This document shows, piece after piece, positions 17-31,935 of a stretch of DNA of 33,406 nt. The first letter of the stretch is position 1. Every line of letters starts with the position of its first letter. The notes below the pieces were generated by a model that had not been told where the DNA came from, searched no databases, and saw only the letters and a program-made list of their open reading frames with translations. The DNA is from Betaproteobacteria bacterium (GTDB lineage: Bacteria; Pseudomonadota; Gammaproteobacteria; Burkholderiales; Burkholderiaceae_F), in the NCBI GenBank assembly GCA_046316025.1, contig JBKCXU010000149.1, forward strand, positions 1-33,406. Direction: 5' to 3'. The position numbers and the translations under genes are program-made.

Positions 17-141
17 CGCTGATGGGTTACTGCTCGCCCCCACCCCAGACCTCCCCCGCTTCGCTGGGGAGGGAGTTTTCCCCCTCCCCTGCGAAGCGGG
101 GGAGGGCTGGGGTGGGGGCGAGCAGTACCCCATCAGCGGCC
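17..141. repeat. ~125-bp near-perfect palindromic (hairpin) REP/MITE-like element. Arms 36-76 and 82-121 have core ...CCCCTCCCCTGCGAAGCGGGGGAGGGCTGGGGTGGGGGCG. Outer flanks are also inverted (ccgctgatgggttactgctcg / cgagcagtaccccatcagcgg). It begins at the ubiB stop codon.
   Basis: Read directly: left arm reverse-complements the right arm. The same 40-nt right arm recurs at 25408-25448. Confidence 0.8.
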
Positions 142-5139: not shown

Positions 5140-5628
5140 CTAGCGGCCCCAGCAGCGGTCGAACAAGGCGCCGTTCGTCGTATGGCCAGCGCACCCGGTG
5201 CCCGCGACAGCGGCGTCGACCAGGCAGCGCGCACCGGACTGGTCGATTCGGAACGCGCCGCACTCGTCGTTGGCTTGCGGACCGGCCGGCGTTGCGGTGA
5301 GCGTGTAAGTCGCCGCGGTCAAGTTGCCCAGCGCAATGTTGTAGCGCACGGTGCCGGCCTCCGGCGCGCGCGCAAACGCGGCCGGGAGGGTGATCGCCGT
5401 GGCGGCTTGGTTCTGGTCGAAGCGCCGCGAGCGCGACTGGTTGTTTTCGACCCATTGGGCCGCCAGCGAAAGCGCTGTTCTGGCGTCCTTGCGCGCACTG
5501 CGGGCGACGGCCTCGGAGTAGTTGGGGATGGCAATCGCTGCCAAGATAGCCAGGATCGCCACCACCACCATCAATTCGACCAGCGTGATGCCCTCGCGCC
5601 GACGGTGCCAACGAGTTCGATGAGTCAT
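5140..5628 (-). CDS. pilE: Type IV pilin-like protein (PilE-type minor pilin)
   Basis: Prepilin N-terminus ...RRREG|ITLVELMVVVAILAILAAIAIPNY (N-methyl/F-T-L-x-E motif, hydrophobic helix). It is the last gene of the fimU-pilVWXY1E operon. Confidence 0.8.
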   Translation of the reverse strand: MTHRTRWHRRREGITLVELMVVVAILAILAAIAIPNYSEAVARSARKDARTALSLAAQWVENNQSRSRRFDQNQAATAITLPAAFARAPEAGTVRYNIALGNLTAATYTLTATPAGPQANDECGAFRIDQSGARCLVDAAVAGTGCAGHTTNGALFDRCWGR

Positions 5629-5640
5629 CGCCGCTCCCCT

Positions 5641-8600
5641 TTACTCCCTCGGCAGTTCACGCCAGACGCGCAGCGTTTGCGAGTCACCACCGAACCCAAC
5701 TGTTCCCGTGACACCACTACGGATACCTGACCCCACGCCGGCAGAGGACGCGTTCAACAAGTGCGGGCTCAGCGTCTCGAGCATCTTCTCCAGTCCGTCC
5801 CGCCTAAGTACGCGGGTTGACTGTGAACAGTCGTCACCAGTGCAGGGGCCGCGGCTGCCTACCGGGGTGCCGAGCAACGCCTGATTCCCGACCGTCGCCT
5901 CCTGCAAGGAAAACGCCACGCACTGCTTGTTGCGGTCGGCGAAAGCGGCGCGGCTAAAGCTGCCGACGAGGTCGAGCCGATACGCAAAGGAGCGTCCGCC
6001 GCCGGCGCAGGGGTCGCCGCCGGCAACCGGCTCGAAGGTCGAGAAGTTGACGAACCCGGCGTCTTCAACCGGGGGGACGAGAACCCGCTCACCGGTGGTC
6101 TCCGTGCCGACGATCAGGTCGAAGTAGAAGCCGAGGTCGGTGGTGAAGTCGATCGACCCCTGGCCGCTCAAGACGCGACCCACGCGGGCTTCGTCCGCGG
6201 CAGTGCACTGGCCGTCGGTATCGGCAGTACGACCGTCGCTGCCGAGCGTCAGCTGGCGCAGGGCCGAGCGCGCGACCTCTGCCGGCGAGGCCGGGGTCTT
6301 CTCCCACAGCACGTAGATCGACTGAACCGAGAGGTCGTCGCGATCCAGCCGCTCGAAGAACTTGCCGGTGCCGAAGGCGATGTAGCGGCCGCCAAACGGA
6401 TGCTCCATCACCCGCGGCGCCGCGGTGATCGGCTGGCGCGGCGCCGTCGTTGTCGACCCGTAGCGCGCTTCGAAGAGCTTGGTGCCGGTCACGGCGGCAA
6501 GTTCGGTGGCCGATGTGGCCGCCGACAAGTCGAACTTCCACAGCCGACCCAGCCGGTCGCCGGCGTAGATCGCAACGATGTTGCGGTTGCTGTCGTAGAC
6601 GGGCGTGACGCCGCCCAGACCGTTGGGCCGCTTCAGCGGATCGGTGTCGGCCGGGTTGCTGCCGCCGGCGTCGTCCGTCGCGAGCGAGAGCACGCCACCC
6701 GTGGACAGATTGATCGCCAACAAGCGCGCTTTGTCGTTCTCGCTCTCGTAGCCGTTGCCGACGAAGTAGTACCAGTTGCCGTCCTTGGCGCTGCCGATCA
6801 CGCCGGGCTGCAGGATATGGCCGATATCGTCGTGATCCGCACCGGTCAGATCCCACAGTACCTTCTGCGCGCTCATCGATGTCGGATCCGTCACGTCGAG
6901 CGCAAAGACTGAGCCGCCCAGCCGTGCGCTGCCCGCCGACCATGTACCGCCGACGCCAGTCGTGCCAACCACGACCGTACGCCACGCGTCGTTCAGGTAA
7001 ACGTCGCCCTCGGCGCTGGGGCCGTCGACAAAGAAACGGTGGTCGTATTCGGGGCGGCTCAGCAAGTTCAATTGCCCGTAAACGGCGCGCGGCACGTAAC
7101 CGAAGAGCTCCTTGCCGTCGGCCGCGTCGAAGGCGTGGAAGATGCCGCCATTGGCGCCGACGTAGATCGCGGCGCGACGCGTGCTCCGCTTTGAAGTCAC
7201 ATACGTGGGATAACTTGACGCGGCCGAGGCCGCCGCCGCCGGTGCACGCGCCGAGCTGTAGAAGAAATCCCGCGCGCGCGAGTACAGCGGCTGCGAGTTG
7301 ACGATATCCGCCAGCAGCGACAGGCGACGGCGATATACGCCGTTGGTCTGGCCGATCTCCTTGGATTGGTCGCCGCGCAGGTAGTCGAGCACATCTTGAC
7401 TGCCGATCTGATCGGCTTGCTCGTCCGTGAGATCGTCGACATCGGCAAAAGCGACCCCCCCAGCCACGTCGTCGGTGGAAGTGAGCAAAGTGCGCTGGGT
7501 GTAGACGGGGAAGTTGGCGCGCCACAGCGGCTCCGGCGCCGCCGTGCCGGCGGTAGCCGCGGTAAACAGCGCCGGCGCATCGAAAGCCTCCAGCTGGCCA
7601 GACCACCGCCTGCTGATGAAGCTGGCCTGGAAGATGCGGTCGCCGGTCGTCACTCGGGTCGACGTGCTGACCAAGCCGGTGCCGCTGCCCTCCTGTTCGG
7701 CGATGACCCCCAACACGGCCGCCACTTCGCGCGCCAGCGCGGCAACGTCGGTTGCCGAAAGGAAGTCGCCGCGCGACGCAAGGGCAGCGCGCAGCACGTC
7801 GTTGCGCCGGCCGCAGCCGCTGGCCGGCTCCGTGCCGCCGAAGGCCAGGCACGCCGCGTCGTTGTCGGTGACGACGGTCTGCGCCGTGTTCACCGGCGGC
7901 CAACTGATCGAGCTGCGCGCGGCTGCGGCGGAGCGCGTCGCTGCGGTGTCGCGCGAGGCGGAGATCCCGTAGCCGACGACATACGTCGTGAGGCTCTGCC
8001 AGAACGCCTCGTTACGCCGCTCTGCCGGCTCGTCGATCGGGCCGATATTGTTCAACAAGTCGGGGCGCAGGTCGCGGCTCCACCAGAACAGGGTGGCATC
8101 CGACAGGGTGCCGGTGGGCGAGCCAGACACCTGCGAAATGTGCACTTCGGCGGCGGGTTCATAGGTGTACTCGCGCCCGGCGACCGAGCCGCCCCCAGCG
8201 TGAGTCGGTCCATCAACGCTGATGGCAGTCGTCGGCAGGTAACCCTGGGTCGTCACGAAATCGTTGGGCAAGCCCGCGCTGGTGCGCGACTCGATGCGGG
8301 GCTGCTGCGGCGGGGTGACGGCCGGCACCTTGGTCCATTCGCCATCGCTGATGATGATCGCGTAGTTACGCCGACACGAGATATGGTCGTCCGACTCTTC
8401 GGTGGTCTGCCAGGCTGCAGCCGTGGTCGCCCGGTCGTCGATCCACGGCCCGCGGTTGTCGGTCCGCGCGAGGTAACGGCCAATGGCGTCCACCGCTTCC
8501 CGGGTCGGCGTCGCGCCCACGCCACGCACGCTGAAGAGCCAGTCGAACACTTCCTGCCGCGCGTTGCTGGAGCCCGGCGCTGGCGCCGGTAAGGTCTGCG

Positions 8601-17352: not shown

Positions 17353-17645
17353 TTTGTAGTTCTCCAAAGAGCGAGTGAAAGAACGGAAGTGGGCGTGGCC
17401 TCCCGGCCAGCACGCGGCACCGCCGCGTGGCGCACCGAGGAGTACCGCCTGCGCCGCGCAGCACGCCACGCGCTGGCCCACGGGCCAGCGGCGGTGTGCC
17501 GGTTGAGCGGAAGACGGTTCGTCGGCGCGCGCCGGTGGGGCGCAAGCGCGATGGGCGGTGCCGGGGCCGTTGCGCGGCGCGCTCGTCTGCGCCGCTCGCC
17601 AGTCCCGGCCGAGGCCGGCCCGGTTTGAAGCAAACCCTTTACAGG

Positions 17646-17719
17646 GGTATCCCGCGGGAGTCGAACCCGCGACCGACGGTTTATGAGACCGTTGCTCTAC
17701 CCGACTGAGCTAGGGATGG
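17646..17719 (-). tRNA. tRNA(CAT) Met or Ile2-type. It has a classic D-arm (GCTC AGTCGGGTA GAGC), anticodon loop CTCATAA and T-arm GCGGG TTCGACT CCCGC. The top two acceptor pairs are mismatched, and its 5' end overlaps the CCA of the upstream tRNA-like element by 3 nt.
   Basis: Manual fold of the reverse complement. No CCA encoded. Acceptor is 5' CCATCCC / 3' GGGATAC (5 bp plus 2 terminal mismatches). Confidence 0.5.
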
Positions 17720-17795
17720 TGTCGAAACGGGGAATCGAACCCCGAGGTACGCCGCGGCGAGCCGCGACGCGCGTTTGCCATTTCGCCATTTCGAC
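17718..17795 (-). ncRNA. Anticodon-less tRNA-like element (tRNA pseudogene or Y-RNA-like tRNA mimic). It has a perfect 7-bp acceptor (GTCGAAA/TTTCGAC), discriminator A, encoded CCA, a canonical T-arm CGGGG TTCGATT CCCCG and a type-II-like D-arm GCG AAATGGCAAA CGC. The anticodon arm is replaced by an 8-bp stem with tetraloop (CGTCGCGG CTCG CCGCGGCG).
   Basis: Manual fold. No 5+7+5 anticodon arm is possible. The variable region is too short for a class II tRNA. Confidence 0.5.
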
Positions 17796-19091: not shown

Positions 19092-19155
19092 ACCCTCTCC
19101 TGCTTATGCGGGCGAGGGTCTTTTGCCCCCCTCGCCCGCATAAGCGGGAGAGGGG
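19092..19155. repeat. ~64-bp palindromic REP-like element (arms CCCTCTCCTGCTTATGCGGGCGAGGG / CCCTCGCCCGCATAAGCGGGAGAGGG, loop TCTTTTGCCC) between HNH and tRNA-Gln/rtcB
   Basis: Arms are reverse complements. Core resembles the other copies (CCCCTC.CC.GC.TAAGCGGGAGAGGGG vs CCCCTCCCCTGCGAAGCGGGGGAGGG). Confidence 0.7.
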
Positions 19156-19200
19156 CCGGGGTTGAGGGCGTGGGGCGTTGGCTCGCGTTGCGGCTGGCGT

Positions 19201-20582: not shown

Positions 20583-20676
20583 TGGTGGAAGCGGCCGGTC
20601 CCGACCCGGCATGCCGGCGACAATCGCCGACTCTCGCTTAGCAGGCGAGCGGTTTTGCCAATTCACCCACGCTTCC
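20583..20676 (-). tRNA. tRNA-Ser(GCT), class II, 94 nt. T-loop GTCGGGA (G54/G58). CCA encoded.
   Basis: Acceptor GGAAGCG/CGCTTCC. D-arm GGT GAATTGGCAAA ACC. Anticodon arm CTCGC CTGCTAA GCGAG. Long variable hairpin. Confidence 0.7.
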
Positions 20677-20682
20677 GAATGG

Positions 20683-20758
20683 TGGTCAGGGTGGCTGGCT
20701 CCGCCCCAGCCGCCTCCTGCTCCCAAGGCAGGCGCTCTACTCAATGAGCTACACCCTG
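20683..20758 (-). tRNA. tRNA-Pro(TGG). T-loop GGCGGAG (G54/G58). CCA encoded.
   Basis: Acceptor CAGGGTG/CACCCTG. D-arm GCTC ATTGAGTA GAGC. Anticodon arm CCTGC CTTGGGA GCAGG. Confidence 0.65.
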
Positions 20759-20826
20759 ATGCAAGCTCGCCGTCGGAAAGGGGTGTCCCGAGCGCGTTGA
20801 CGGGCGGCACGCAGTGGCCGACTCGA

Positions 20827-20903
20827 TGGGGTGATCGACCGGTTTCGATCCGGTACCCGCGGGGTCACAGTCCGCGATGCAGAGCCACTACACCACGATC
20901 ACC
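20827..20903 (-). tRNA. tRNA-His(GTG) with G-1 and C73-CCA. T-loop ATCGAAA (A54). Unusual D-arm (5-bp TGTAG/CTGCA with 5-nt loop). One C.C mismatch in the anticodon stem.
   Basis: G + GTGATCG...CGATCAC C CCA. Anticodon loop ACTGTGA. Confidence 0.55.
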
Positions 20904-20924
20904 ACAAAACGGTGCGAAAACAAT

Positions 20925-21013
20925 TGGTGCCCTCGGCGCGAGTCGAACGCGCACTGGCCGCACGGGCCTCCTCGTTCTGAGCGAGGTGGGTTTGCCGATT
21001 CCCCTACGAGGGC
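20925..21013 (-). tRNA. tRNA-Leu(CAG), class II, 89 nt. Canonical T-loop TTCGACT. CCA encoded.
   Basis: Acceptor GCCCTCG/CGAGGGC. Anticodon arm CCTCG CTCAGAA CGAGG. Variable GGCC CGTGC GGCC. Confidence 0.8.
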
Positions 21014-21059
21014 TTGAAGTTGAGCGGGGCCGCTTTGCTGGATTGCGACCTCGCGCGGG

Positions 21060-21146
21060 TGGTGCCGGCGGAGGGCCACGATCCCCCACGGCCTTGCGGC
21101 CGCCAGGCTCTCGACCTGGTGCGTCTGCCAATTCCGCCACGCCGGC
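21060..21146 (-). tRNA. tRNA-Leu(GAG), class II, 87 nt. T-loop ATCGTGG (A54/U58). C33 in the anticodon loop TCGAGAG. CCA encoded.
   Basis: Acceptor GCCGGCG/CGCCGGC. D-arm GCG GAATTGGCAGA CGC. Variable GGCC GCAA GGCC. Confidence 0.6.
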
Positions 21147-21152
21147 AATGAA

Positions 21153-21238
21153 TGGACTCGGAGGCCGGACTCGCACCGGCGCGGACTCTCGTCGGCCGGG
21201 TTGCAACCGGCTGCATTCGCCTGCTCTGCCACTCCGAG
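21153..21238 (-). tRNA. tRNA-Cys(GCA)-like, 86 nt, with an unusually long 14-nt variable region. T-loop TGCGAGT (G55). CCA encoded.
   Basis: Acceptor CTCGGAG/CTCCGAG. Anticodon arm GCCGG TTGCAAC CCGGC. Confidence 0.55.
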
Positions 21239-21242
21239 ATGT

Positions 21243-21314
21243 TGGTTGCGGTCGCCGGCGCTGCCCCGGTCCCCGAGCACATGAAGCTCGTGTGCACTGC
21301 TACACCACCCCGCG
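21243..21314 (-). tRNA. tRNA-Met(CAT)-like with initiator-type 5' acceptor CGCGGGG (C1.A72), but 2 further acceptor mismatches and an aberrant T-arm (CCGG GGCAGCG CCGG). CCA encoded. Possibly degenerate.
   Basis: Anticodon arm CGAGC TTCATGT GCTCG is perfect. The rest is irregular. Confidence 0.4.
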
Positions 21315-21321
21315 ATAGAAC

Positions 21322-21397
21322 TGGTCCCTTCGGCAGGTACCGACCCTGCGACACCCCGGCCTTCAACCGGGTGCTCTACCCACTGAGCTACGAAGGG
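21322..21397 (-). tRNA. tRNA-Phe(GAA). T-loop GTCGGTA (G54/G58). Otherwise textbook (D-arm GCTC AGTGGGTA GAGC). CCA encoded.
   Basis: Acceptor CCCTTCG/CGAAGGG. Anticodon arm CCCGG TTGAAGG CCGGG. Confidence 0.75.
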
Positions 21398-21402
21398 GGA
21401 AC

Positions 21403-21477
21403 TGGAGCTTCGCCCCGAACGTGCGCCGGGCTGTCGTCCTTACGAGGGCCGCGCGTCGCTGTCTACGCCGGCGAAGC
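21403..21477 (-). tRNA. tRNA-Thr(CGT)-like. Good acceptor and D-arm. Anticodon stem has 1 mismatch. T-loop CGCACGT is non-canonical. CCA encoded.
   Basis: Acceptor GCTTCGC/GCGAAGC. D-arm GCGT AGACAGCG ACGC. Loop CTCGTAA. Confidence 0.4.
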
Positions 21478-21505
21478 GAATGGGCGCCGCCGCGCGACCA
21501 ACGGG

Positions 21506-21577
21506 CACACCGTGCGGGTATCGATCCCGCCTGCGCAGGTTGAAAGCCTGCTGACCTCACCTGAAGTCGAACGGTGC
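21506..21577 (-). tRNA. tRNA-Glu(TTC). T-loop ATCGATA (A54/U58). No CCA encoded. G1.U72.
   Basis: Anticodon arm GCAGG CTTTCAA CCTGC is perfect. T-stem GCGGG/CCCGC. Confidence 0.55.
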
Positions 21578-21587
21578 GTGTTGCTGT

Positions 21588-21661
21588 CTGCGGCCGCTGG
21601 ACTCGAACCAGCCTGTTCCTTCTTAACAGGGAGGCGTCGTCGCCCGGACGACTCGACCGCA
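21588..21661 (-). tRNA. tRNA-Asn(GTT). Canonical T-loop TTCGAGT. No CCA encoded. One mismatch in the anticodon stem.
   Basis: Acceptor TGCGGTC/GGCCGCA (one G.U). Loop CTGTTAA. Confidence 0.55.
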
Positions 21662-21667
21662 ACATGC

Positions 21668-21743
21668 TGGACCCTCCGCGAGGAATCGAACCTCGATCTC
21701 GACGTTCGTAGCGTCGTGTCCTTGTCCGTTGAACGACGGAGAG
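21668..21743 (-). tRNA. tRNA-Arg(ACG). Canonical T-loop TTCGATT. CCA encoded.
   Basis: Acceptor CTCTCCG/CGGAGGG (one G.U). Anticodon arm CGACG CTACGAA CGTCG is perfect. Confidence 0.75.
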
Positions 21744-21748
21744 AGATT

Positions 21749-21823
21749 TGGCGCCGCTTGCGGGTGCCGACCCCGCGGCCTTCCGCTGGACAGGCGGGTG
21801 CTCTGCCGTTGAGCTAAAGCGGC
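21749..21823 (-). tRNA. tRNA-Asp(GTC). T-loop GTCGGCA (G54/G58). CCA encoded.
   Basis: Acceptor GCCGCTT/AAGCGGC. D-arm GCTC AACGGCA GAGC. Loop CTGTCCA. Confidence 0.65.
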
Positions 21824-21870
21824 GTGGCGCAGAGAGTGCCCTTTGCCAGTTCCGGCATCTCTCCTTGAGC

Positions 21871-21946
21871 TGGTTGGCCGCCTGGGGCTCGAACCCAGAT
21901 CTGCCGGATCAAGAGTCCGGTTCCCTGCCACTCGGGAGCGCGGCCA
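21871..21946 (-). tRNA. tRNA-Lys(CTT). Canonical T-loop TTCGAGC. G8 and G14 instead of U8/A14. CCA encoded.
   Basis: Acceptor TGGCCGC/GCGGCCA is perfect. Anticodon arm CCGGA CTCTTGA TCCGG. Confidence 0.65.
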
Positions 21947-21952
21947 GCGCAT

Positions 21953-22024
21953 TGGAGGACCGACCGAGTAACGCTCTCGGCGTGCGGTGCTTGCAAGGCA
22001 CGGCTGCACCCTTGTGCTCGGCCC
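21953..22024 (-). tRNA. tRNA-Ala(TGC)-like, short (72 nt). 4-bp D-stem with 4-nt loop. T-loop AGCGTTA (A54/U58). CCA encoded.
   Basis: Acceptor GGGCCGA/TCGGTCC. Anticodon GTGC CTTGCAA GCAC. Confidence 0.4.
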
Positions 22025-22030
22025 GTGTTC

Positions 22031-22120
22031 TGGTGCGTCAGGCTGGGCATGATCCAGCAGCGGCCCCGGTGGGCTCCTGCTTTACAGGCAGGCGGGTTCA
22101 GCCAGCTTCCCTACTGACGC
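22031..22120 (-). tRNA. tRNA-Tyr(GTA), class II, 90 nt. T-loop ATCATGC (A54/U58). CCA encoded.
   Basis: Acceptor GCGTCAG/CTGACGC. Anticodon arm CCTGC CTGTAAA GCAGG. Variable GCCC ACCG GGGC. Confidence 0.65.
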
Positions 22121-22161
22121 GTGCCATGCGCCAACGCACGGCCCGGCCATGCGCTGGCGAA

Positions 22162-22237
22162 TGGTGCGGGCGCCCGGGAACGATCCGAGGCCTCGACGTT
22201 GGCAACGTCGCGTGCTGCCGATTGACACCACGCCCGC
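22162..22237 (-). tRNA. tRNA-Gly(GCC), first gene of the array. T-loop ATCGTTC (A54/U58). CCA encoded.
   Basis: Acceptor GCGGGCG/CGCCCGC. Anticodon arm CGACG TTGCCAA CGTCG is perfect. Confidence 0.7.
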
Positions 22238-23188: not shown

Positions 23189-23306
23189 GGCGTGCCGGCG
23201 GCGCGGCGTGATCTCAGTGACACGGCGCGGCAGCTTGTACTTGTTGCCTTTGCGGCGGTGCGACTCCGGGCCAGCGTTCCTCCCTCACCCCAACGCCTCT
23301 CCCGGG

Positions 23307-23330
23307 GGGAGAGGGGCTTTACAGAGCTGG
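23307..23330. repeat. Short GC palindrome GCCTCTCCC-GGG-GGGAGAGGGGC just past the hipA remnant, same flavour as the repeat family
   Basis: Read directly. Confidence 0.4.
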
Positions 23331-25134: not shown

Positions 25135-26778
25135 CTAGTCTTGCGCCGGCCTTTGCGCGGCCAGATCGGCGGCAATCAGCCGGAACTGCTCCAGCGCCGC
25201 CTCCAGGTCTTCGACGATCTCTTGCGCGATCGCCTCGGGCGGGGGCAGGTTGTCGCTGTCGGCGAGGCTCGCATCCTTGAGCCAGAAGATGTCGAGGCTC
25301 GCCTTGTCGCGGGCGATGAGTTCGTCGTAGCTGTAGGCGCGCCAGCGGCCGTTTGCGCCGCGCTCGCCCCCACCCCCACCCTCCCCCGCAGGCGGGGGAG
25401 GGAGTAACCCCCTCCCCTGCGAAGCGGGGGAGGGCTGGGGTGGGGGCGTGGGTCCTCCATCCCGGTGAGGCTCATGGTCAGCGTTCGGGCGGTGCCCCGC
25501 TTCGTCAAACCAAGTCGCCCTGCGCTCGTGCCGGTTGGCCGGGTTGTACAGCCGCACAAACTCGTCCAGGTCCGCCCGCTTGAGCGGGTTGGTCTTCAGC
25601 GTGTAGTGCTTGTTGGTGCGCAGGTCGTAGATCCACAGTTGACGCGTGCTGGGCGTGTCCGACGCCGGCCGCTTGTCGAAGAACAGCACGTTCGCCTTGA
25701 CCCCTTGCGCGTAGAACAGGCCCGTCGGCAGCCGTAGCAGCGTATGCACGTCGCACTCGTGCAGCAGCTTGCGGCGGATGGTCTCACCGGCGCCGCCTTC
25801 GAAGAGCACGTTGTCCGGCACCACCACCGCTGCGCGGCCGTGGGTCTTGAGCAGCGTCTTGATGTGCTGCACGAAGTTCAGTTGCTTGTTGCTGGTGGTG
25901 GCCCAGAAGTCGTCGCGCTCGACGATGTCTTTCTCGGTCGTCGTGCGGCCGTCTTCGCCGACGATCATCGTGCTGGACTTCTTGCCGAACGGCGGATTGG
26001 CCAAAACAACATCAAATCGTTCGCCAGGGTCGGCCGCCAGCGCATCGGCCACGCGCACCGGCACGTTCTTGTCCGAGCCGATGCCGTGCAGCAGCAGGTT
26101 CATCGCGCACACGCGCGCGGTGGCTTGCACCAGCTCCCAGCCGCGAAATGCGCTCTCCTTGAGGTGGCGCTTCTCTTCGCGGGTGAGGTTGGGGTTGTGC
26201 TGCGCGATGGTGTTGTGCGCGGTGAAGAGAAAGCCGCCGGTGCCGCAGGCCGGGTCGCACACCGTCTCGCCGGGGCGGGGGGCGATGCAATCGACCATCG
26301 CCTGGATCAGCGCGCGCGGCGTGAAGTACTGGCCGGCGCCGGACTTGATGTCCTGCGCGTTGCGCTCCAACAGGCCTTCGTAGGCATCGCCTTTGACGTC
26401 GGTGCCCAGCGCCGACCAGTCTTCGGCGTCGATCAGATCGACGATCACCCGCCGCAGCTTGGCCGGGTCCTGAAACTTGTTCTGCGCCTTGGCGAAGATC
26501 AGCCCCAGCGTGCCGGCGCGCTTGCCCAGCTCTTCCAGCGTGTGGCGGTAGTGGTCGAACAGATCATCGCCGTCCTTGGCCAGCAGCGCAGGCCAGGCGT
26601 AGGCCGCGGGCACGGGGCTCGGCTGGTTGTGCGGCGGGCGGCTGCGCTCGTCGGCCATCTTGAGGAACAGCAGGTAGGTGAGCTGCTCGACATAGTCGCC
26701 ATAGCTCATCCCGTCGTCGCGCAGGACGTTGCAGTAGTTCCAGAGCTTTTGGACGAGGGTGGCAGCGTTCATCGTCAC
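25135..26778 (-). CDS. hsdM: Type I restriction-modification N6-adenine DNA methyltransferase HsdM, with an in-frame ~45-aa insertion derived from the palindromic repeat element
   Basis: 547 aa. HsdM_N plus the NPPFG catalytic motif. The segment GHRPNADHEPHRDGGPTPPPQPSPASQGRGLLPPPPAGEGGGGGERGA sits between the conserved ...TWFDE and NGRWRAYSYDELIARDKASLDIFWLKD. Confidence 0.88.
   Translation of the reverse strand: MTMNAATLVQKLWNYCNVLRDDGMSYGDYVEQLTYLLFLKMADERSRPPHNQPSPVPAAYAWPALLAKDGDDLFDHYRHTLEELGKRAGTLGLIFAKAQNKFQDPAKLRRVIVDLIDAEDWSALGTDVKGDAYEGLLERNAQDIKSGAGQYFTPRALIQAMVDCIAPRPGETVCDPACGTGGFLFTAHNTIAQHNPNLTREEKRHLKESAFRGWELVQATARVCAMNLLLHGIGSDKNVPVRVADALAADPGERFDVVLANPPFGKKSSTMIVGEDGRTTTEKDIVERDDFWATTSNKQLNFVQHIKTLLKTHGRAAVVVPDNVLFEGGAGETIRRKLLHECDVHTLLRLPTGLFYAQGVKANVLFFDKRPASDTPSTRQLWIYDLRTNKHYTLKTNPLKRADLDEFVRLYNPANRHERRATWFDEAGHRPNADHEPHRDGGPTPPPQPSPASQGRGLLPPPPAGEGGGGGERGANGRWRAYSYDELIARDKASLDIFWLKDASLADSDNLPPPEAIAQEIVEDLEAALEQFRLIAADLAAQRPAQD
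25364..25448. repeat. Copy of the CCCCTCCCC...GGGGAGGG palindromic repeat inserted in-frame within hsdM. Right arm 25408-25448 is identical over 40 nt to 82-121.
   Basis: Read directly. Confidence 0.8.
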
Positions 26779-28232
26779 GCCCAGTAGGGGATGTACTCGG
26801 CGAACTTCCTTCCACTGCCCATGTCCTTGCGCCTGATCCGGCCGGCCTCTACCGCGTCACTGATGAGGTTGGTGATCTGGTTACGGGTCTTGTCATGAAG
26901 GTGAAATCGCCGACGTAGCGTCGTATTCGTCAGGGTCTTGCTCGACAGATACTGCAGCACGGCGTGCTGGTAGCACGCCTCGATCCGCTCGGATGTAGAC
27001 ATATCGGCGAACTTGCGCGGCGCGCCGATGGTCACGCGGAAGGCGTTGTCCTGCGGCGCCAGCACGAGGGGCGGCAGTCCGAACAACTCGATCGCCGTCA
27101 CGACTTTCTGGAAGCCGGTGCCGCGTTCCTCGCAGATCCGGAAGCGCCGGAACGACGAGGCCAGTTTCTCGTTGCGCGACTCCGGCGTCGTGCCGATCAG
27201 CCGGTCGGGCTTCTTGCCCGGCAGCAATGCTCCCGGACTGGTGATCTCGATGCGGTCGTCGTAGATCTCGACCATCGGGCCGGCACCGCCGACCGAAAAG
27301 TCCTGGTGGATCAGCGCGTTCGCAATCAGCTCGCGCAATGCAATCTCGGGGTACATCGCCACCTCGGTCCGCAGCGCCTGCTGGATGACCTCGGAATGCG
27401 GCAGCACACGCTTCAGGTGCCCGATCAGGCCTTCGAAGCCAACCGCGTAGCCGCGCTGGCCCGCAAGCTCGTCGACGGTGTTGACCTTGTTCGTGCCGCG
27501 GTAGCGGATCACCCGGATACGCTTCCGGTCCAGCGACGGGAACTCATCCAGCTTCTTCGCCGCAGCGACCGCCCCGAAGTTCGTGATGTAGAAACCGCGT
27601 CCCTCGGCCACCGCGAGGCCCTCGGCGAGAAGCCAGGCTTCCAGGTTGTCGTCGCCTTCTGGCAGCGGGCGTTGCAGCAAGGCTGCGATGGCCTCCAGAT
27701 CCAGCAGACGCACGACCTCCGACAGGTCGATGAGCGGCGATGCGCGCAGTTCTTCCCAGCGCGGCGACGCGCTGTTGAGCATCAAGGCACCGACCTCCTG
27801 CCGCGACGCCTTGCGCGTCGTGCCGCCGGAGCGAATCCAGGCCTCTTCGATACCTTTGCCGCGCCGATGCACCGGCTTCACCGCCTGCTCGGGCACCCGG
27901 ACGAGCAGCACCGAGACCCCCCGATACTCCACCGCCGCATGGTCGATGGCCACAGGGGGATCGACGGCGTCGCGGCCCAGGTTGGCCAGGGTGTTCGCTA
28001 CCCCGGCAATGTCCTGAGCATCGATGCCCAGCGGCATGCCGTCGTCGTTGACGCCGAAGACCAGCGTGCCACCGTTGGGATGGTTGGCAAACGCCATCAG
28101 GTGCTCGGCCAGCCGTTCCTTTCTGTCCGAGAGCCGGGCCTTCCAGTCGATCTCGTTGGCCTCGTGCGGCAGCGGGCTCAGGCTCTCCTCCAGAGCCTGC
28201 ATCGCCGCCTTCACCCAGTGCTTCGTGGCCAT
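26775..28232 (-). CDS. COG2865-type protein (AlbA_2/Schlafen-like N-domain plus HATPase_c_4, C-terminal winged helix). These are commonly embedded in type I R-M loci. ATGA overlap with hsdM.
   Basis: 485 aa. Domain recognition from the translation is moderate. C-terminus ...NLISDAVEAGRIRRKDMGSGRKFAEYIPYWA. Confidence 0.65.
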   Translation of the reverse strand: MATKHWVKAAMQALEESLSPLPHEANEIDWKARLSDRKERLAEHLMAFANHPNGGTLVFGVNDDGMPLGIDAQDIAGVANTLANLGRDAVDPPVAIDHAAVEYRGVSVLLVRVPEQAVKPVHRRGKGIEEAWIRSGGTTRKASRQEVGALMLNSASPRWEELRASPLIDLSEVVRLLDLEAIAALLQRPLPEGDDNLEAWLLAEGLAVAEGRGFYITNFGAVAAAKKLDEFPSLDRKRIRVIRYRGTNKVNTVDELAGQRGYAVGFEGLIGHLKRVLPHSEVIQQALRTEVAMYPEIALRELIANALIHQDFSVGGAGPMVEIYDDRIEITSPGALLPGKKPDRLIGTTPESRNEKLASSFRRFRICEERGTGFQKVVTAIELFGLPPLVLAPQDNAFRVTIGAPRKFADMSTSERIEACYQHAVLQYLSSKTLTNTTLRRRFHLHDKTRNQITNLISDAVEAGRIRRKDMGSGRKFAEYIPYWA

Positions 28233-28394
28233 TTGATAACAAGTCGTTGATTTAAGAAGGAGTTTCAGGCTTTTCCGGATTCAGATGTGATGCGGCCTTC
28301 CGCTCGACATCGCCGCCCCAACCGCCGGCAGACTCTCCGCGTGTGATGCCAAGCCATTGACTTGAAAGGCTCGATTGTCGCCGTCCGGTTTCGG

Positions 28395-28545
28395 ATGTGA
28401 AAGGCCGGTAAAGATCAGCCCCAGCGCGCCGTCGCGCTTGCCCAGCTCTTCGAGCGTGTGGCGGTAGCGGTCGAACAGCGCATCGTCGTCGCGCAGGACG
28501 TTGCAGTAGCTCCAAGGCTGTTGGAACGAGGGTGGAGGTGTTCAC
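28395..28545 (-). pseudogene. Truncated, diverged 5' fragment of a second hsdM (hsdM'). It aligns to hsdM codons ~1-75 but has a 1-nt insertion and a ~135-bp internal deletion at TCG microhomology.
   Basis: Nucleotide alignment to 26480-26775 (…gtcgaacagCGCATCGTCGTCGCGCAGGACGTTGCAGTAG… versus hsdM …gtcgaacagATCATCGccgtcc…cccgTCGTCGCGCAGGACGTTGCAGTAG…). Confidence 0.7.
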
Positions 28546-28795
28546 GGCGCGGGCGAGGCTGGGTGCTTGCAGGGATGGAGCGGAACGAGAGGTTGTTAGC
28601 GCACACTTGCGTGGAACGCATTGCCCATTGAAGCCGCCCACCAGCCCTGGCCGCGCGCAGCCACGGAGCGCGGCCATTGGTAGAAGGCGCCCACCCGCTT
28701 TGTTAGCCGTCGTCTTCCGATAACACCACTAACAAAGCCAAGCTCTTGTTGTGTAAAAGCTTTTACTCGTTCCATTGATTGTTTGGGCGGTCGAT

Positions 28796-29161
28796 TCATT
28801 GTTTTTCTTGCTCGATCAGAACCCAAAGCGGCGCCTGCCGCGTTCCCGCGTTGCGGATCGCCTTGCCCGACAGGGAAGAAATCAGGTTGTGCACTTTGCC
28901 CAACTTCTGCGCCGGCGTCAGCACCTCCGGCAGCTTGTCGAGCAGCAGCCGGTCGATGTCGCCGCGCGAGACCGGGCCGTGCGTGCGCACCAACTCGACG
29001 ATCATGTCCCGGTAGTAGCGGCTGTCGAAGCCGCGGTTGCGGATGTGCTGCGCTTTCTGCCCCGTGGCGGCCGCCACCGGGCCGGCCACCAGCAGATTGG
29101 GGTAGCGCCCCTCCACCAACCCCGCCGCGCGCAGCCGCTTGGCGCCCGCGGCTCGGGGCAC
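28796..29161 (-). pseudogene. C-terminal fragment (121 aa) of a second, paralogous COG2865-family gene. It is a 5'-truncated remnant.
   Basis: ...KLGKVHNLISSLSGKAIRNAGTRQAPLWVL aligns with the C-terminal winged helix of the full copy (…TNLISDAVEAGRIRRKDMGSGRKFAEYIPY). Confidence 0.55.
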
Positions 29162-29188
29162 CCCCCGTCAAGTCGCCCACGGCCAAGC

Positions 29189-29641
29189 CTACGGTACCCG
29201 CATCCCGGTCTGCGGGTTCAACAACTCCAACGCAAGCGTGTCGCGCAGCGGAAGAAACGCTGCCAAGTCCGTGGACATGACGGTCAAGCCCGCCACCCGC
29301 GCAGTCGCTGCAATCCATAGGTCGTTGTGATCGTGCTGTATCGCGAGGCCCTTCGCCTTGGCGTGCGACTTGAGCCGAGCCCACTCCTCGTGAATCTCGC
29401 GTCGCCCAATGGGCAGGACGACGTGTTCGTCGATCACCTCGTCCAGGAGCTTCCGCCGCCTTTCTCCCCAGCTCTGCGAAAAAGCCAGCAACTCTGCGAC
29501 CGAAACCTCGCACAGAGCCGGCCGGAACGGGGAACTCCTCAATCCGAACTGTCGGTCGATGGCTTCCGCTTGCGCGCTGCCTTCGCGCGTCGCGAACAAG
29601 ACCACGTTGGTGTCGAGCAGGTACGGCAGCGGCGCGCTCAT
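29189..29641 (-). CDS. vapC: PIN-domain ribonuclease toxin (VapC-like)
   Basis: 150 aa. YLLDTNVVLFA...ELLAFS...NDLWIAATARVAGLTVMSTD acidic PIN quartet pattern. Confidence 0.8.
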   Translation of the reverse strand: MSAPLPYLLDTNVVLFATREGSAQAEAIDRQFGLRSSPFRPALCEVSVAELLAFSQSWGERRRKLLDEVIDEHVVLPIGRREIHEEWARLKSHAKAKGLAIQHDHNDLWIAATARVAGLTVMSTDLAAFLPLRDTLALELLNPQTGMRVP

Positions 29642-29647
29642 TCGGCG

Positions 29648-30604
29648 TCAACTCATTGCTTCGACAGCCGCCAGGAACTCTTCGTCGGTTTCCTCGGCCG
29701 GAATACGGCCAAGGATCTTCTCGTAGGCCGACCGCTCGCCGATCTTCAGCCGCAGCAAGCGACTCGTATCGGTCGCCACAATCGCAGCGGGAACGCGCCT
29801 GAAGTACGCATCGCCCTTGGCCGCTGCGGCAATTGCCGAAGCATCCACGCGCAGCAGCGAACCAGAGGGCCTGAATACCGCCTTCCCCTCAATCACCACT
29901 TCGCGATTGAAAAGATCCCTGAGCGTCTCGATCGACCCTTCCCCCTCCCACAGCGCGATGACAACCGCGCCGGGTTCGACGGCGATCTTCATCAAACCTT
30001 GACTCGCCCCCAACACATCCAAGCGGCCGACGATCCGCACTCGCTGAACTGGCGGGATCGCGGCGGATAACTCCGAAGCCGCCTGCGTCACCATCCGATC
30101 CAGAAATGCGGGAACGTCGACGCCCTGCTCGACGAGGGCAATACGATCCAAGTGGCGCGGGGCGACGAACAGCTTGCGATACCGGCTGAATCTCTTCAGC
30201 AATCCCGTATCGAAGCGCGAGCTGTCGCCGCGGCGCGCGGCCACGTCGCGCAGCGACGCGGCAAGCAGATCGAACGCGGTTTGGTCTGCCCGCGGGCCGT
30301 CCTCCCAGAGAGGTCGCTGCCGGAACGCGTCGGGCGCCGCGTCGCCGAGCGTCGGCAACTCGAAGTGCAACAGGGTGGTGTTATCGCCGGTCGCGCTATG
30401 GCCGAGGAAGCGCGTATCAGCTGCGGCTTGCAACTGAGCGGGCACTCGCCCGCGAGCCCGGCTGGAATGCAGAAAGCCCATGCGCACGCTGTCGAGCATG
30501 GTGTCGCGCAGTCCGGTCAGGATCGGCCCGATCAACTCGGGTCTGGGCCGCGGCCCGAGGCCCTCGCGCGCTTCGAGGCGAAAGCTACGTTCGACAGTAT
30601 TCAC
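29648..30604 (-). CDS. Hypothetical protein (318 aa, no recognisable domain). Translationally coupled on both sides: GTG start overlaps the hsdS stop (GTGA), and its stop is 6 nt before the vapC ATG. Acidic C-terminus.
   Basis: Long high-GC3 ORF in frame. Start assigned to GTG VNTVERSF... The upstream part of the ORF overlaps hsdS out of frame. Confidence 0.5.
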   Translation of the reverse strand: MNTVERSFRLEAREGLGPRPRPELIGPILTGLRDTMLDSVRMGFLHSSRARGRVPAQLQAAADTRFLGHSATGDNTTLLHFELPTLGDAAPDAFRQRPLWEDGPRADQTAFDLLAASLRDVAARRGDSSRFDTGLLKRFSRYRKLFVAPRHLDRIALVEQGVDVPAFLDRMVTQAASELSAAIPPVQRVRIVGRLDVLGASQGLMKIAVEPGAVVIALWEGEGSIETLRDLFNREVVIEGKAVFRPSGSLLRVDASAIAAAAKGDAYFRRVPAAIVATDTSRLLRLKIGERSAYEKILGRIPAEETDEEFLAAVEAMS

Positions 30605-31935
30605 AGCACGTCTCCCGTCCTGCGTGCGTAGGAGCCGAAGTCTAGCGAGCGCGCTGTACCGGTAAAGGCTTGCGCCAATACCGCCTGCCGCAGCGCCTGC
30701 GCGCGTTGCAGGTTCGCATCGACCTCGGCCTCGACCTCGCGGACGATGGACAGGCGGCGGTCCAATTCGGCGACGATGCGGCGCTGCTCGGCGAGCGGCG
30801 GAAGCGGCAGGACGAGCTTGCGGCACGTCGACACTTGCACGTTGTGTTGCCCGGCCGTCGCCTTGGTCGTTCTCTCGATACGGCGCTGGAGCGGCGGCGC
30901 CATGAGCCAGTACGCGAGCAGGCGATTCAAGATGCGCGGCCCCGTGCGGAAAGTGACGATGGCCTGATTGATGTTCCACTCCGGAAAGGCGTCCGGGACG
31001 ACCGACACCTTCCCAAGCGGCGGGCCGACGATGTTCGTCAGCACATCCCCAGGCAGACACCGCGAACGGGCAAGAGGGCCGGCATGAACCGCGCGGCGGA
31101 TGAACGTGGGCTTCACGCTGAAATCCAGAGCACCATCGAAGCCGAGGTTGTAGACCTTGATGAACGGCACCTCGCCCGAACCGCTCGTCATCTCGTCGGC
31201 CTTCGGTGTGGAGCCGCTGGCAACGACTTCGCAGACTTCGGCCATGGCTGCCCACGACCACCCGGCCGGCAAATCGACGGCAGGCGCGAGGTCGGGGTGA
31301 TCGCCCTCGGGCGGCGGCAGCGTTGACCCAAGAAGCTCCCCGCGGACAGCGGCCGAGAGGATGGCAGCTCTCTGACGCGCAAGGTTGGCCTTGACGCGCT
31401 TGAGGTTGACGACGGCCTCGTCGAGGCGGGAGAACTGCTTTTCGATTTCGGCGACGATGCGGCGCTGCTCGTCGAGTTCAACGAGTGGAATCTCGAAGTC
31501 GAGTAGCGCGTTCGTCTCGATAGACGCAACGGTCGTACCGTGCTTCGAGCATTCTTTGAGAATGCGACGGCTGGCTCCCCGCAGCGCATGCGCAACGTAC
31601 TTCGGCAGGACACCTGGCCGCGGAGTCAGCGCCTTGAGGTCTTGGTTGATCGTGACCGGGGTCTTCGTCACTGCGACGGGGAGCGTGTGCGACAGGATAC
31701 CGCTTCGCGTGACGAGGAGCACCGATCCCTCGGGGACCATCGAAACACGACCTTGCTTCACCGCCACCTCGGACACTTGGTCTTCGGACGAAGTGATCTC
31801 GTCGACCTTCATGTCCTTTGGCGACACCCACGGAACGGTCCCAGCGGTCCAGTAGGCAGCGTTGGCCTTGGATGGGGTGTTACCACCGCTCCATACCCCG
31901 AGGTCACGAAGGGCAACCATCGCCGCGCCGCTCAC
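30601..31935 (-). CDS. hsdS: Type I R-M specificity subunit HsdS (two target-recognition domains). ATGA overlap with the hsdR stop.
   Basis: 444 aa. Conserved central and C-terminal repeats LVELDEQRRIVAEIE / LPLPPLAEQRRIVAELDRRLS. Ends ...LRQAVLAQAFTG... Confidence 0.85.
   Translation of the reverse strand: MSGAAMVALRDLGVWSGGNTPSKANAAYWTAGTVPWVSPKDMKVDEITSSEDQVSEVAVKQGRVSMVPEGSVLLVTRSGILSHTLPVAVTKTPVTINQDLKALTPRPGVLPKYVAHALRGASRRILKECSKHGTTVASIETNALLDFEIPLVELDEQRRIVAEIEKQFSRLDEAVVNLKRVKANLARQRAAILSAAVRGELLGSTLPPPEGDHPDLAPAVDLPAGWSWAAMAEVCEVVASGSTPKADEMTSGSGEVPFIKVYNLGFDGALDFSVKPTFIRRAVHAGPLARSRCLPGDVLTNIVGPPLGKVSVVPDAFPEWNINQAIVTFRTGPRILNRLLAYWLMAPPLQRRIERTTKATAGQHNVQVSTCRKLVLPLPPLAEQRRIVAELDRRLSIVREVEAEVDANLQRAQALRQAVLAQAFTGTARSLDFGSYARRTGDVL

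Follow-up and report, generated by a model that had tools for sequence, protein, structure and literature searches.

A GC-rich repeat of probable BoxC/PIT type in the hsdM and hsdR genes of an uncultured betaproteobacterium

How did a type I restriction-modification (R-M) operon come to carry, within two of its coding sequences, the same GC-rich palindromes that are found outside genes? The question is raised by contig JBKCXU010000149.1 (the window in what follows), the whole of a 33,406-nt contig from a metagenome-assembled genome (MAG) labelled Betaproteobacteria bacterium. Copies of one repeat lie downstream of ubiB (35–121), within hsdM (25365–25448) and within hsdR (32133–32262). We compared the window with a contig from a sister MAG (JBKCUY010000257.1, 43,253 nt), which is 99.7–99.9% identical across the shared parts. 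The copies in hsdM and hsdR are lineage-specific in-frame insertions, translated as linkers rich in P, G and S. There is one such insertion in hsdM and three in hsdR (one of them in the window), at linker or loop positions that vary in length. The elements themselves are probably a sequence variant of the class known as BoxC, potential intrastrand triplex (PIT) or intrastrand triplex motif (TM), whose form in E. coli is called TMECO. This class has been described before, and the repeat is not a new kind of element.

The repeat unit and its copies in the window

The octamer CCCTCCCC occurs 11 times in the window against a chance expectation of 1.3, a count reached by no shuffled sequence, and all 11 occurrences are confined to positions 66–106, 25379–25434 and 32149–32208. 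The unit is 39 nt long, and its commonest form is CGCCCCCACCCCAGCCCTCCCCCGCTTCGCAGGGGAGGG. On the G-rich strand it consists of a pyrimidine arm CCCTCCCCC (that is, CCCTCCCC(C)), a loop, a purine arm GGGGGAGGG, the triplet CTG and a third block, GGGTGGGGG, which mirrors the purine arm, with a T facing the A of the arm. A scan for this triad of blocks gave matches without mismatch at 82–118 (+), 25410–25446 (+) and 25367–25402 (−), and matches with one mismatch at 23315 (−) and 32169 (−). A relaxed version of the three-block pattern had three matches in the window and none in 100 shuffles.

At 35–121 and 25365–25448, two units face each other across a spacer of 7–8 nt. Such doublets are inverted pairs of 84–86 nt, with an extra outer arm of ≈30 nt at some loci, and an alignment of eight doublet copies showed that the outer arm belongs to the element. 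The doublet downstream of ubiB has its perfect motif on the plus strand at 82–118 (CCCTCCCC tgcgaagc GGGGGAGGG ctg GGGTGGGGG), while the partner unit at 35–73 (−) has two substitutions and the spacer occupies 74–81. The hsdM doublet (84 nt, motifs at 25410–25446 on the plus strand and 25367–25402 on the minus strand) is extended on one side only by the outer arm at 25449–25483 (consensus GT-GGAtGCCCCAAC..GGTGAGG.TCATGG), a pattern found once in the window and never in shuffles. Repeat comparison within the contig showed that 80–120 and 25408–25448 are identical over 41 nt (100%), close to the 40 nt (82–121) that an earlier reading of this DNA, made from the sequence alone (the sequence-only reading), had pointed out.

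Folded as single strands, the three doublets of the window gave z = −13.1, −7.9 and −9.8 relative to shuffles. The folding energy was −56.2 kcal/mol for 35–121 (z ≈ −13) and −46 kcal/mol for the hsdM doublet (z ≈ −8), in calculations that consider Watson–Crick hairpins only. The octamer count and the folding of the doublets together bear out the proposal of the sequence-only reading that the window contains a dispersed family of GC-rich palindromic repeats.

The remaining copies are more diverse. At 19093–19175, between two open reading frames on the minus strand, is a doublet with arms CCCTCGCCCGCATAAGCGGGAGAGGG, whose segments 19093–19118 and 19129–19154 are 96% complementary (z = −9.8 for 19093–19154) and whose right unit has an imperfect third block, GGGGTTGAGGG, after the triplet gcc. 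The sequence-only reading had listed 19092–19155 as a related element; it is indeed a doublet, but of a second family. A single triplex motif is located at 23281–23330 (−), directly 3′ of the stop codon of a hipA-like gene (CCCTCTCCC ccc GGGAGAGGc gtt GGGGTGAGGG), so that the short element previously marked at 23307–23330 proves to be part of a full unit. The supposed half-copy at 15181–15209 likewise corresponds to a decayed single unit at 15175–15210 (+), which is 81% complementary to 23281–23316 and folds no better than shuffles (z = +0.85). In total, the 33 kb hold two doublets of the main family, one doublet of the second family and three single units, one of which is decayed. A GC-rich hairpin of 12 bp at 16149–16186, between the SPFH and RlaP genes, had also been considered a member. 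We rejected it as unrelated: it has neither homopurine/homopyrimidine arms nor a third block and is absent from the triplex-motif scan. A consensus terminator scan lent no support to a terminator role for the hairpins at 16149 and 23307.

In-frame insertions in hsdM and hsdR

The methyltransferase subunit gene hsdM (25135–26778, minus strand; Pfam N6_Mtase and HsdM_N) encodes 547 aa from a GTG start codon, compared with 545 aa in the annotation of the sister MAG. The doublet accounts for 28 codons, read in the gene frame as PPPQPSPASQGRGLLPPPPAGEGGGGG, and the adjacent outer arm is translated within the same linker, so that the extra residues comprise 28 aa from the doublet and ≈11 aa from the outer arm. 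The linker from the catalytic domain to the GRWR segment thereby reaches 53 residues, while the rest of hsdM is well conserved. Among the top 120 homologues, the linker has 6 residues in 52 and 13 residues in 24, and ten have P/S/G-rich linkers of 14–26 residues. In the closest solved structure (PDB 2okc_A), 7 residues are found at the linker, compared to 58 in the query. The P/G-rich linker in HsdM had thus been recognized correctly by the sequence-only reading, while its estimate of ≈45 added residues is better expressed as a linker of 53 aa, against 6 or 13 in most homologues.

The insertion is identical in the sister MAG. At the DNA level, the site is occupied by a decayed single unit in the nearest HsdM allele (P0001, locus L121) and by an intact unit of E. 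coli type, one that matches the literal TMECO consensus, in another (P0010, L122); a third (P0004, L124) has no unit.

The window contains only the 3′ part of hsdR (31932–33401, minus strand), in which the Pfam match to EcoEI_R_C is split into two stretches. The insertion is at 32133–32262 (−). Here, a single motif at 32138–32169 (CCCTCCCC ttcaa GGGGAGGG ccg GGGACGGG) has one mismatch in the third block. The tandem array of 39-bp units that had been placed at 32147–32240 does exist, but it extends over 32146–32262 and has three units of 39 nt, two identical and one 72% identical; the added residues are therefore 3 × 13 aa rather than the 2 × 13 aa first proposed. Since the repeat unit contains a copy of the upstream flank of the gene itself, the array arose by tandem duplication after insertion. 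Most HsdR homologues read AW[ML]AQQQAAGKGFTDEQ at this position, without an insert. In the window, 45 residues separate AQQ from FTDEQ, ≈40 aa more than in insertion-free alleles. The insertion is identical in the sister MAG, where the full gene (sister contig locus L131) encodes 998 aa and contains three triplex-motif insertions. The other two are outside the window: a perfect and nearly identical copy of the hsdR unit in the same gene, 1.7 kb further upstream (L131, 8010–8043), and a single unit of the hsdM/ubiB type (L131, 7463–7505). In both R-M genes the frame is kept, as had been claimed.

The same sites have been hit in other lineages. Independent TM insertions at these hsdM and hsdR linker sites were found at the DNA level in L121, L122 and L123, and the insert in the HsdR homologue P0134 is, as DNA, a textbook TMECO. 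At the C-terminal site, repeat-like inserts of other sequence are present in eight of 45 HsdR homologues. In P0138, P0143 and P0151, the inserts at this site read RESGDP, RGSGNPE or GESRDP. To judge from these peptides, they resemble the translation of a different family of GC-rich hairpin repeats; if so, the HsdR site would accept several repeat families.

An alternative is that these P/G-rich stretches are low-complexity linkers of ancient origin in HsdM and HsdR, or artefacts of assembly. These linker positions are variable in length in all lineages, and positions 1–34 of the window do resemble an assembly artefact (see below). However, the hsdM copy shares 41 nt with the copy downstream of ubiB and all 84 nt with copies in other assemblies, identities that exclude convergence at the protein level. 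Furthermore, both inserts are present in two independent assemblies of MAGs, and insertion-free alleles make up the majority for both hsdM and hsdR. An ancient or artefactual origin is thus extremely improbable.

A different possibility is that the insertions are retained for a function, either as flexible linkers by which assembly of the type I enzyme is tuned, or as contingency loci that expand and contract through their hairpins and so vary R-M activity. Two genes of a single operon have four insertions between them, the same sites are occupied in other lineages (8 of 45 HsdR and 10 of 86 parsed HsdM homologues), and the 39-nt tandem duplication is recent and in frame. Yet a change of 39 nt in length cannot act as an on/off switch for the gene, the majority of homologues function with no insert, and these elements are also found between genes and in unrelated genes. 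The recurrence at the same sites is equally expected from purifying selection on all other sites, and we consider functional retention quite unlikely.

According to the explanation that we prefer, in which the copies are in-frame insertions of a dispersed repeat, they would be passengers, neutral or nearly so. Gene copies would survive because nearly all frames of the element are free of stop codons, because only lengths divisible by three persist and because only flexible linkers tolerate the added residues. Stop-free frames number five of six in the 84-nt doublet and all six in the 86-nt doublet. Since nearly all doublet frames are open, a copy inside a gene faces two main barriers: its length must be divisible by three, and the local structure must tolerate it. 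That the same sites are hit repeatedly would then follow from the persistence of passengers in permissive linkers only.

Relationship to BoxC, PIT and other repeat families

The literal sequences of the unit gave no match in full-text searches of the literature, but its architecture is a known one. The BoxC and PIT repeats reportedly go back to work by Bachellier et al. in the 1990s and by Hoyne et al. in 2000 and 2002. Holder et al. (2015) equated the E. coli BoxC repeat, or "potential intrastrand triplex" (PIT) element, with TMECO and gave its consensus as CCCTCNCCC N3-6 GGGNGAGGG N3 GGGNGAGGG (PMC4666352). The same study counted 3610 TM copies in 262 proteobacterial genomes and 23, all intergenic, in E. 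coli K-12; described five pairs in inverted configuration; showed the TMECO triplex in vitro by circular dichroism (CD) and nuclear magnetic resonance (NMR); and tied TM elements to deletions and rearrangements, while PIT elements had neither promoter nor terminator activity and no link to mobile elements (PMC4666352).

The elements in the window have in common with this class the pyrimidine arm, the complementary purine arm and a mirror G/T block past a loop of ≈3 nt. Both have GC-rich stems of 9 nt and frequent inverted pairs, are dispersed in multiple copies without a linked transposase, and are associated with local rearrangement. They differ in the arms, which here are CCCTCCCCC / GGGTGGGGG rather than CCCTC[T/G]CCC / GGGTGAGGG; in the host, an uncultured betaproteobacterium; in the outer arms of ≈30 nt in one subfamily; and in the presence of copies within coding sequences, in contrast to the strictly intergenic copies of E. 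coli K-12.

We assign the elements to the BoxC/PIT/TM class because they follow the three-block rule exactly and because the rule covaries across arm types. The 20-mer GGGGAGGGCTGGGGTGGGGG was found in at least 119 stretches of public genomes in a scan of one genome per species. Among the matches listed, a complementary pyrimidine arm was present 2–12 nt upstream in 106 of the 122 that could be evaluated (87%), with variable loops. Covariation of the third block was scored in fetched loci, outside the 20-mer by which they were selected. Hairpins with arm CCTTCCCCC had the third block GGATGGGGG, as in the mirror model, in 16 of 17 cases, and the direct-repeat model fitted one of 17. Other pairs of arm and third block were CCTCCCCCC with GG[AT]GGGGGG, CCCTCTCCC with GGGTGAGGG, and CCCTCCCCC with GGGTGGGGG, so that each of four arm types has the third block predicted by the triplex mirror rule. 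In GGGTGGGGG, a G replaces A at position 6, which compensates the asymmetric arm. The literal TMECO consensus itself is present in seven fetched loci, including the hsdM allele L122.

The G-rich strand, GGGGGAGGGCTGGGGTGGGGG, is also a canonical quadruplex motif of four G-runs with loops of 1–2 nt, and the CD spectra of a triplex and a parallel quadruplex are similar, according to Holder et al. (PMC4666352). The relevant structure might therefore be a G-quadruplex, or an RNA hairpin, instead of a DNA triplex. A quadruplex, however, has no need of the pyrimidine arm that accompanies 87% of the matches listed, nor does it predict that a T or A in the third block tracks the position in the arm, and the NMR spectrum of the TMECO oligonucleotide, an E. 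coli sequence, contained 18 imino signals that fit a triplex and not a quadruplex (PMC4666352). The lack of promoter or terminator activity in PIT elements is a further difficulty. Rfam returned only tRNAs with the gathering threshold and, with an E-value threshold, only generic long-hairpin (microRNA precursor) matches far under their cut-offs, so that the unit matches no curated RNA family. We regard a quadruplex or RNA structure as highly improbable.

Like the REP, BIME and REPIN elements, the units in the window are short, GC-rich, imperfect palindromes that form inverted doublets and mosaics with other repeat families, with no target-site duplication. They might therefore be REPINs, mobilised in trans by a RAYT transposase of the IS200/IS605 type, with the third block serving as a guide or cleavage region. 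A 5′ tail beside a hairpin resembles the ends of IS200/IS605 elements. The inverted doublet appears to move as a unit with a conserved spacer, and an absent target-site duplication fits elements that move as single strands by "peel and paste". However, neither GTAG nor CGTC was seen in or beside the units read (the ubiB, hsdM and other-assembly doublets), tags that mark most REP superfamilies (PMC3733652). REPs lack the extra mirror block, a guide sequence for the transposase does not predict its covariation, and the E. coli BoxC units, as noted above, were not found with mobile elements. Near-identical units in many phyla are also at odds with the largely vertical inheritance of REPIN–RAYT pairs. 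The labels among the 20-mer matches listed include Proteobacteria, Chloroflexota, Planctomycetota, Bacteroidota, Actinomycetota, Deinococcota, Spirochaetota, Elusimicrobiota, Armatimonadota and others, a breadth that may be inflated by binning errors in MAGs. We think mobilisation of the REPIN–RAYT type unlikely.

Bacterial miniature elements of the MITE type (Correia, ERIC, Nezha and others) resemble the units in being small and non-autonomous, in forming long hairpins and in occasional in-frame fusion to genes. Unlike in MITEs, no terminal inverted repeats that match an insertion sequence could be detected in the units; the outer arms do form inverted repeats, yet several loci have them only in part. 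What remains of the REP- or MITE-like behaviour proposed by the sequence-only reading is thus a dispersed palindromic repeat that is tolerated in frame; its third block places it with BoxC/PIT/TM and not with the classical REP or MITE elements.

The Rickettsia palindromic elements (RPEs), reportedly described by Ogata et al. in 2000, are closest in behaviour, just as BoxC/PIT/TMECO is the closest family. RPEs are found in frame in many unrelated protein-coding genes, where the extra peptide is tolerated by the fold (PMC10969869). In-frame insertion into unrelated genes and the existence of insertion-free orthologues are common to both, but the sequences are unrelated: RPEs are ≈150 bp long, encode a conserved peptide and are confined to Rickettsia, whereas the units described here are ≈38 nt (84 nt for doublets), extremely GC-rich, and encode low-complexity P/G/S linkers.

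Several observations weigh against the preferred explanation, that is, in-frame insertions of a BoxC/PIT/TM variant. The literal TMECO consensus, from which the units depart in arm and third block alike, had no match in the window, and dimethyl sulfate footprinting did not detect the triplex in vivo in E. coli (PMC4666352). The flanks of eight aligned copies shared no target-site duplication, and neither these copies nor the hsdR sites provided a clean empty-site junction; comparison of filled and empty hsdR sites indicated local replacement, not duplication. In the 43-kb sister contig, neither the called genes nor the Pfam hits include a transposase, whether of the Y1/RAYT type or another. 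The exact boundaries of the insertions are uncertain, because the linkers are variable in all lineages, and the hsdM linker may consist in part of an older unit, now decayed, that P0001 has as well. The insert could not be placed in an AlphaFold2 model of HsdM (alignment of 19 sequences, mean pLDDT 39). Finally, the copy count covers the 33-kb contig rather than the whole genome of the source MAG, and neutrality for R-M is assumed.

Dispersal, rearrangement and consequences

Copies of the repeat were found well outside the contig. The identical 84-nt doublet is present in a Burkholderiales MAG (L107), between the genes for an ABC-transporter ATPase and permease, and at six differently flanked loci of one metagenome (L125–L130), which, with the 20-mer matches described above, establishes that the motif occurs elsewhere. 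The sequence-only reading had named two outcomes that would refute it, a motif absent from other places and a lack of insertion-free hsdM or hsdR alleles; neither was observed, and its interpretation is supported. (The L107 doublet was read directly; BLASTN with low-complexity filtering missed it.) Adjoining the doublet in the same intergenic spacer of L107, at 5283–5345, are two more hairpins with another arm type (CCCTCTCCC ggt GGGAGAGGG, and CCTCTCCCTCAGGGAGAG), making this spacer a BIME-like mosaic of repeat families.

Placement within genes is not restricted to the R-M operon. By an open-frame heuristic combined with GC content at third codon positions, 26 of 103 matches in GC-rich loci were spanned by a coding-like open frame, although many of the 26 were near frame ends. 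Ten were checked with Pfam, and in five of these, domains flank or enclose the unit: DNA polymerase I, UvrA, a C39-ABC exporter, and the pyruvate dehydrogenase E2 (dihydrolipoamide acyltransferase) and E1-beta subunits, the latter of which carries a lipoyl domain. In a sixth, a PMT_2 glycosyltransferase, one domain ends just upstream of the unit. In most of these genes the unit is placed in a linker.

At the ubiB locus, the sequence-only reading had described a palindrome of 125 bp at 17–141 that starts at the ubiB stop codon. The repeat itself occupies 35–121 and begins 11 nt past the stop codon (133–135). The outer part of the palindrome is due to an inverted near-copy of the 3′ end of ubiB (121–154) at positions 1–34, giving arms (1–73 and 82–154) that are 92% complementary. 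In the window, the doublet is thus followed by this 34-nt near-copy and then by the contig end, whereas the sister contig has no such fold-back and reads from the doublet into a gene for a TPMT-family methyltransferase. The outer palindrome is therefore an uncorroborated feature of the contig end, either an artefact or a strain-specific rearrangement, and positions 1–34 are probably a fold-back or chimeric contig end outside the repeat.

Seven of the 11 mismatches between the window and the sister contig fall within the ubiB doublet, five of them due to a flipped spacer; the doublet in the sister contig (L001) has perfect arms. The 8-nt spacer (74–81 in the window, 11636–11643 in L001) is inverted between two MAGs that are 99.9% identical. 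Recombination across the inverted arms would produce such a flip; otherwise, the population may contain the two orientations side by side. Three other relatives of the ubiB locus (L132–L134) match the element over no more than its first 14 nt (CGCCCCCACCCC..), and different downstream sequence follows. The site is ≈12–26 nt after the ubiB stop codon, and L132 at least has a different downstream gene start. In these loci, a synteny breakpoint lies inside the repeat.

On a single strand, the unit could fold into a hairpin with a third strand in its groove, and DNA that forms hairpins or triplexes may provoke replication slippage or recombination. The 39-nt array in hsdR, the flipped spacer and the breakpoint downstream of ubiB would be signs of such instability.

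The R-M operon contains a number of other genes. Between hsdS and hsdM (26775–30600, minus strand) are a 318-aa protein without a Pfam hit, a PIN-domain protein (29189–29641), a 121-aa protein without a Pfam hit and a protein with SLFN/AlbA_2 and HATPase_c_4 domains (26775–28232). All are probably cargo with a defence or toxin role, carried inside the operon. A fragment at 28411–28530, upstream of the AlbA_2 gene, is ≈90% identical to the 5′ part of hsdM (26495–26753), with an internal deletion; it resembles a scar left by the event, insertion or recombination, that put the extra genes into the operon. Past window position 33406, the sister contig continues through the operon to dnaA-dnaN-gyrB (L131, 1529–6945). 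Since the operon begins directly after these genes, the island adjoins the chromosomal replication origin region.

Elsewhere in the window, 14 tRNA genes, which include two for tRNA-Leu and together cover 13 amino acids, are packed into 1.65 kb at 20583–22237 (−), and a tRNA-Met and a tRNA-Ala are found 3 kb from this array at 17644–17795 (−). The neighbours of the array include RlaP, an RNA-repair-associated nucleotidyltransferase, the SPFH protein, the HipA-like kinase and the PIN-domain gene inside the R-M operon, and the array looks like part of a defence or toxin neighbourhood. At 5641–11517 (−) is a PilY1-like open reading frame of 1958 aa (1928 aa in the sister annotation), with direct repeats of 54-nt periodicity at 9434–10152.

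The observations extend the literature that we found on this class in three respects: among the matches listed, units under the labels of about ten phyla obey one triplex rule, and changes in their three blocks compensate each other; units are located repeatedly in frame in flexible protein linkers and not only between genes; and one type I R-M operon has four units, one of which is tandem-expanded. In practical terms, such elements break MAG assemblies, give fold-back contig ends and inflate annotations of "low-complexity linkers", and in GC-rich genomes they may mislead gene callers and domain boundaries drawn from homology. A bolder and rather unlikely proposal is that TM units are an active, pan-bacterial form of mobile DNA defined by structure, in which a conserved structure-specific process would keep the mirror rule and the units would routinely seed P/G-rich linkers, with type I R-M genes as preferred or especially tolerant targets, to judge from the four units in one operon and the repeated occupation of these sites in other lineages. 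If this were true, the units would be a general source of linker innovation in proteins and of variability in restriction-modification.

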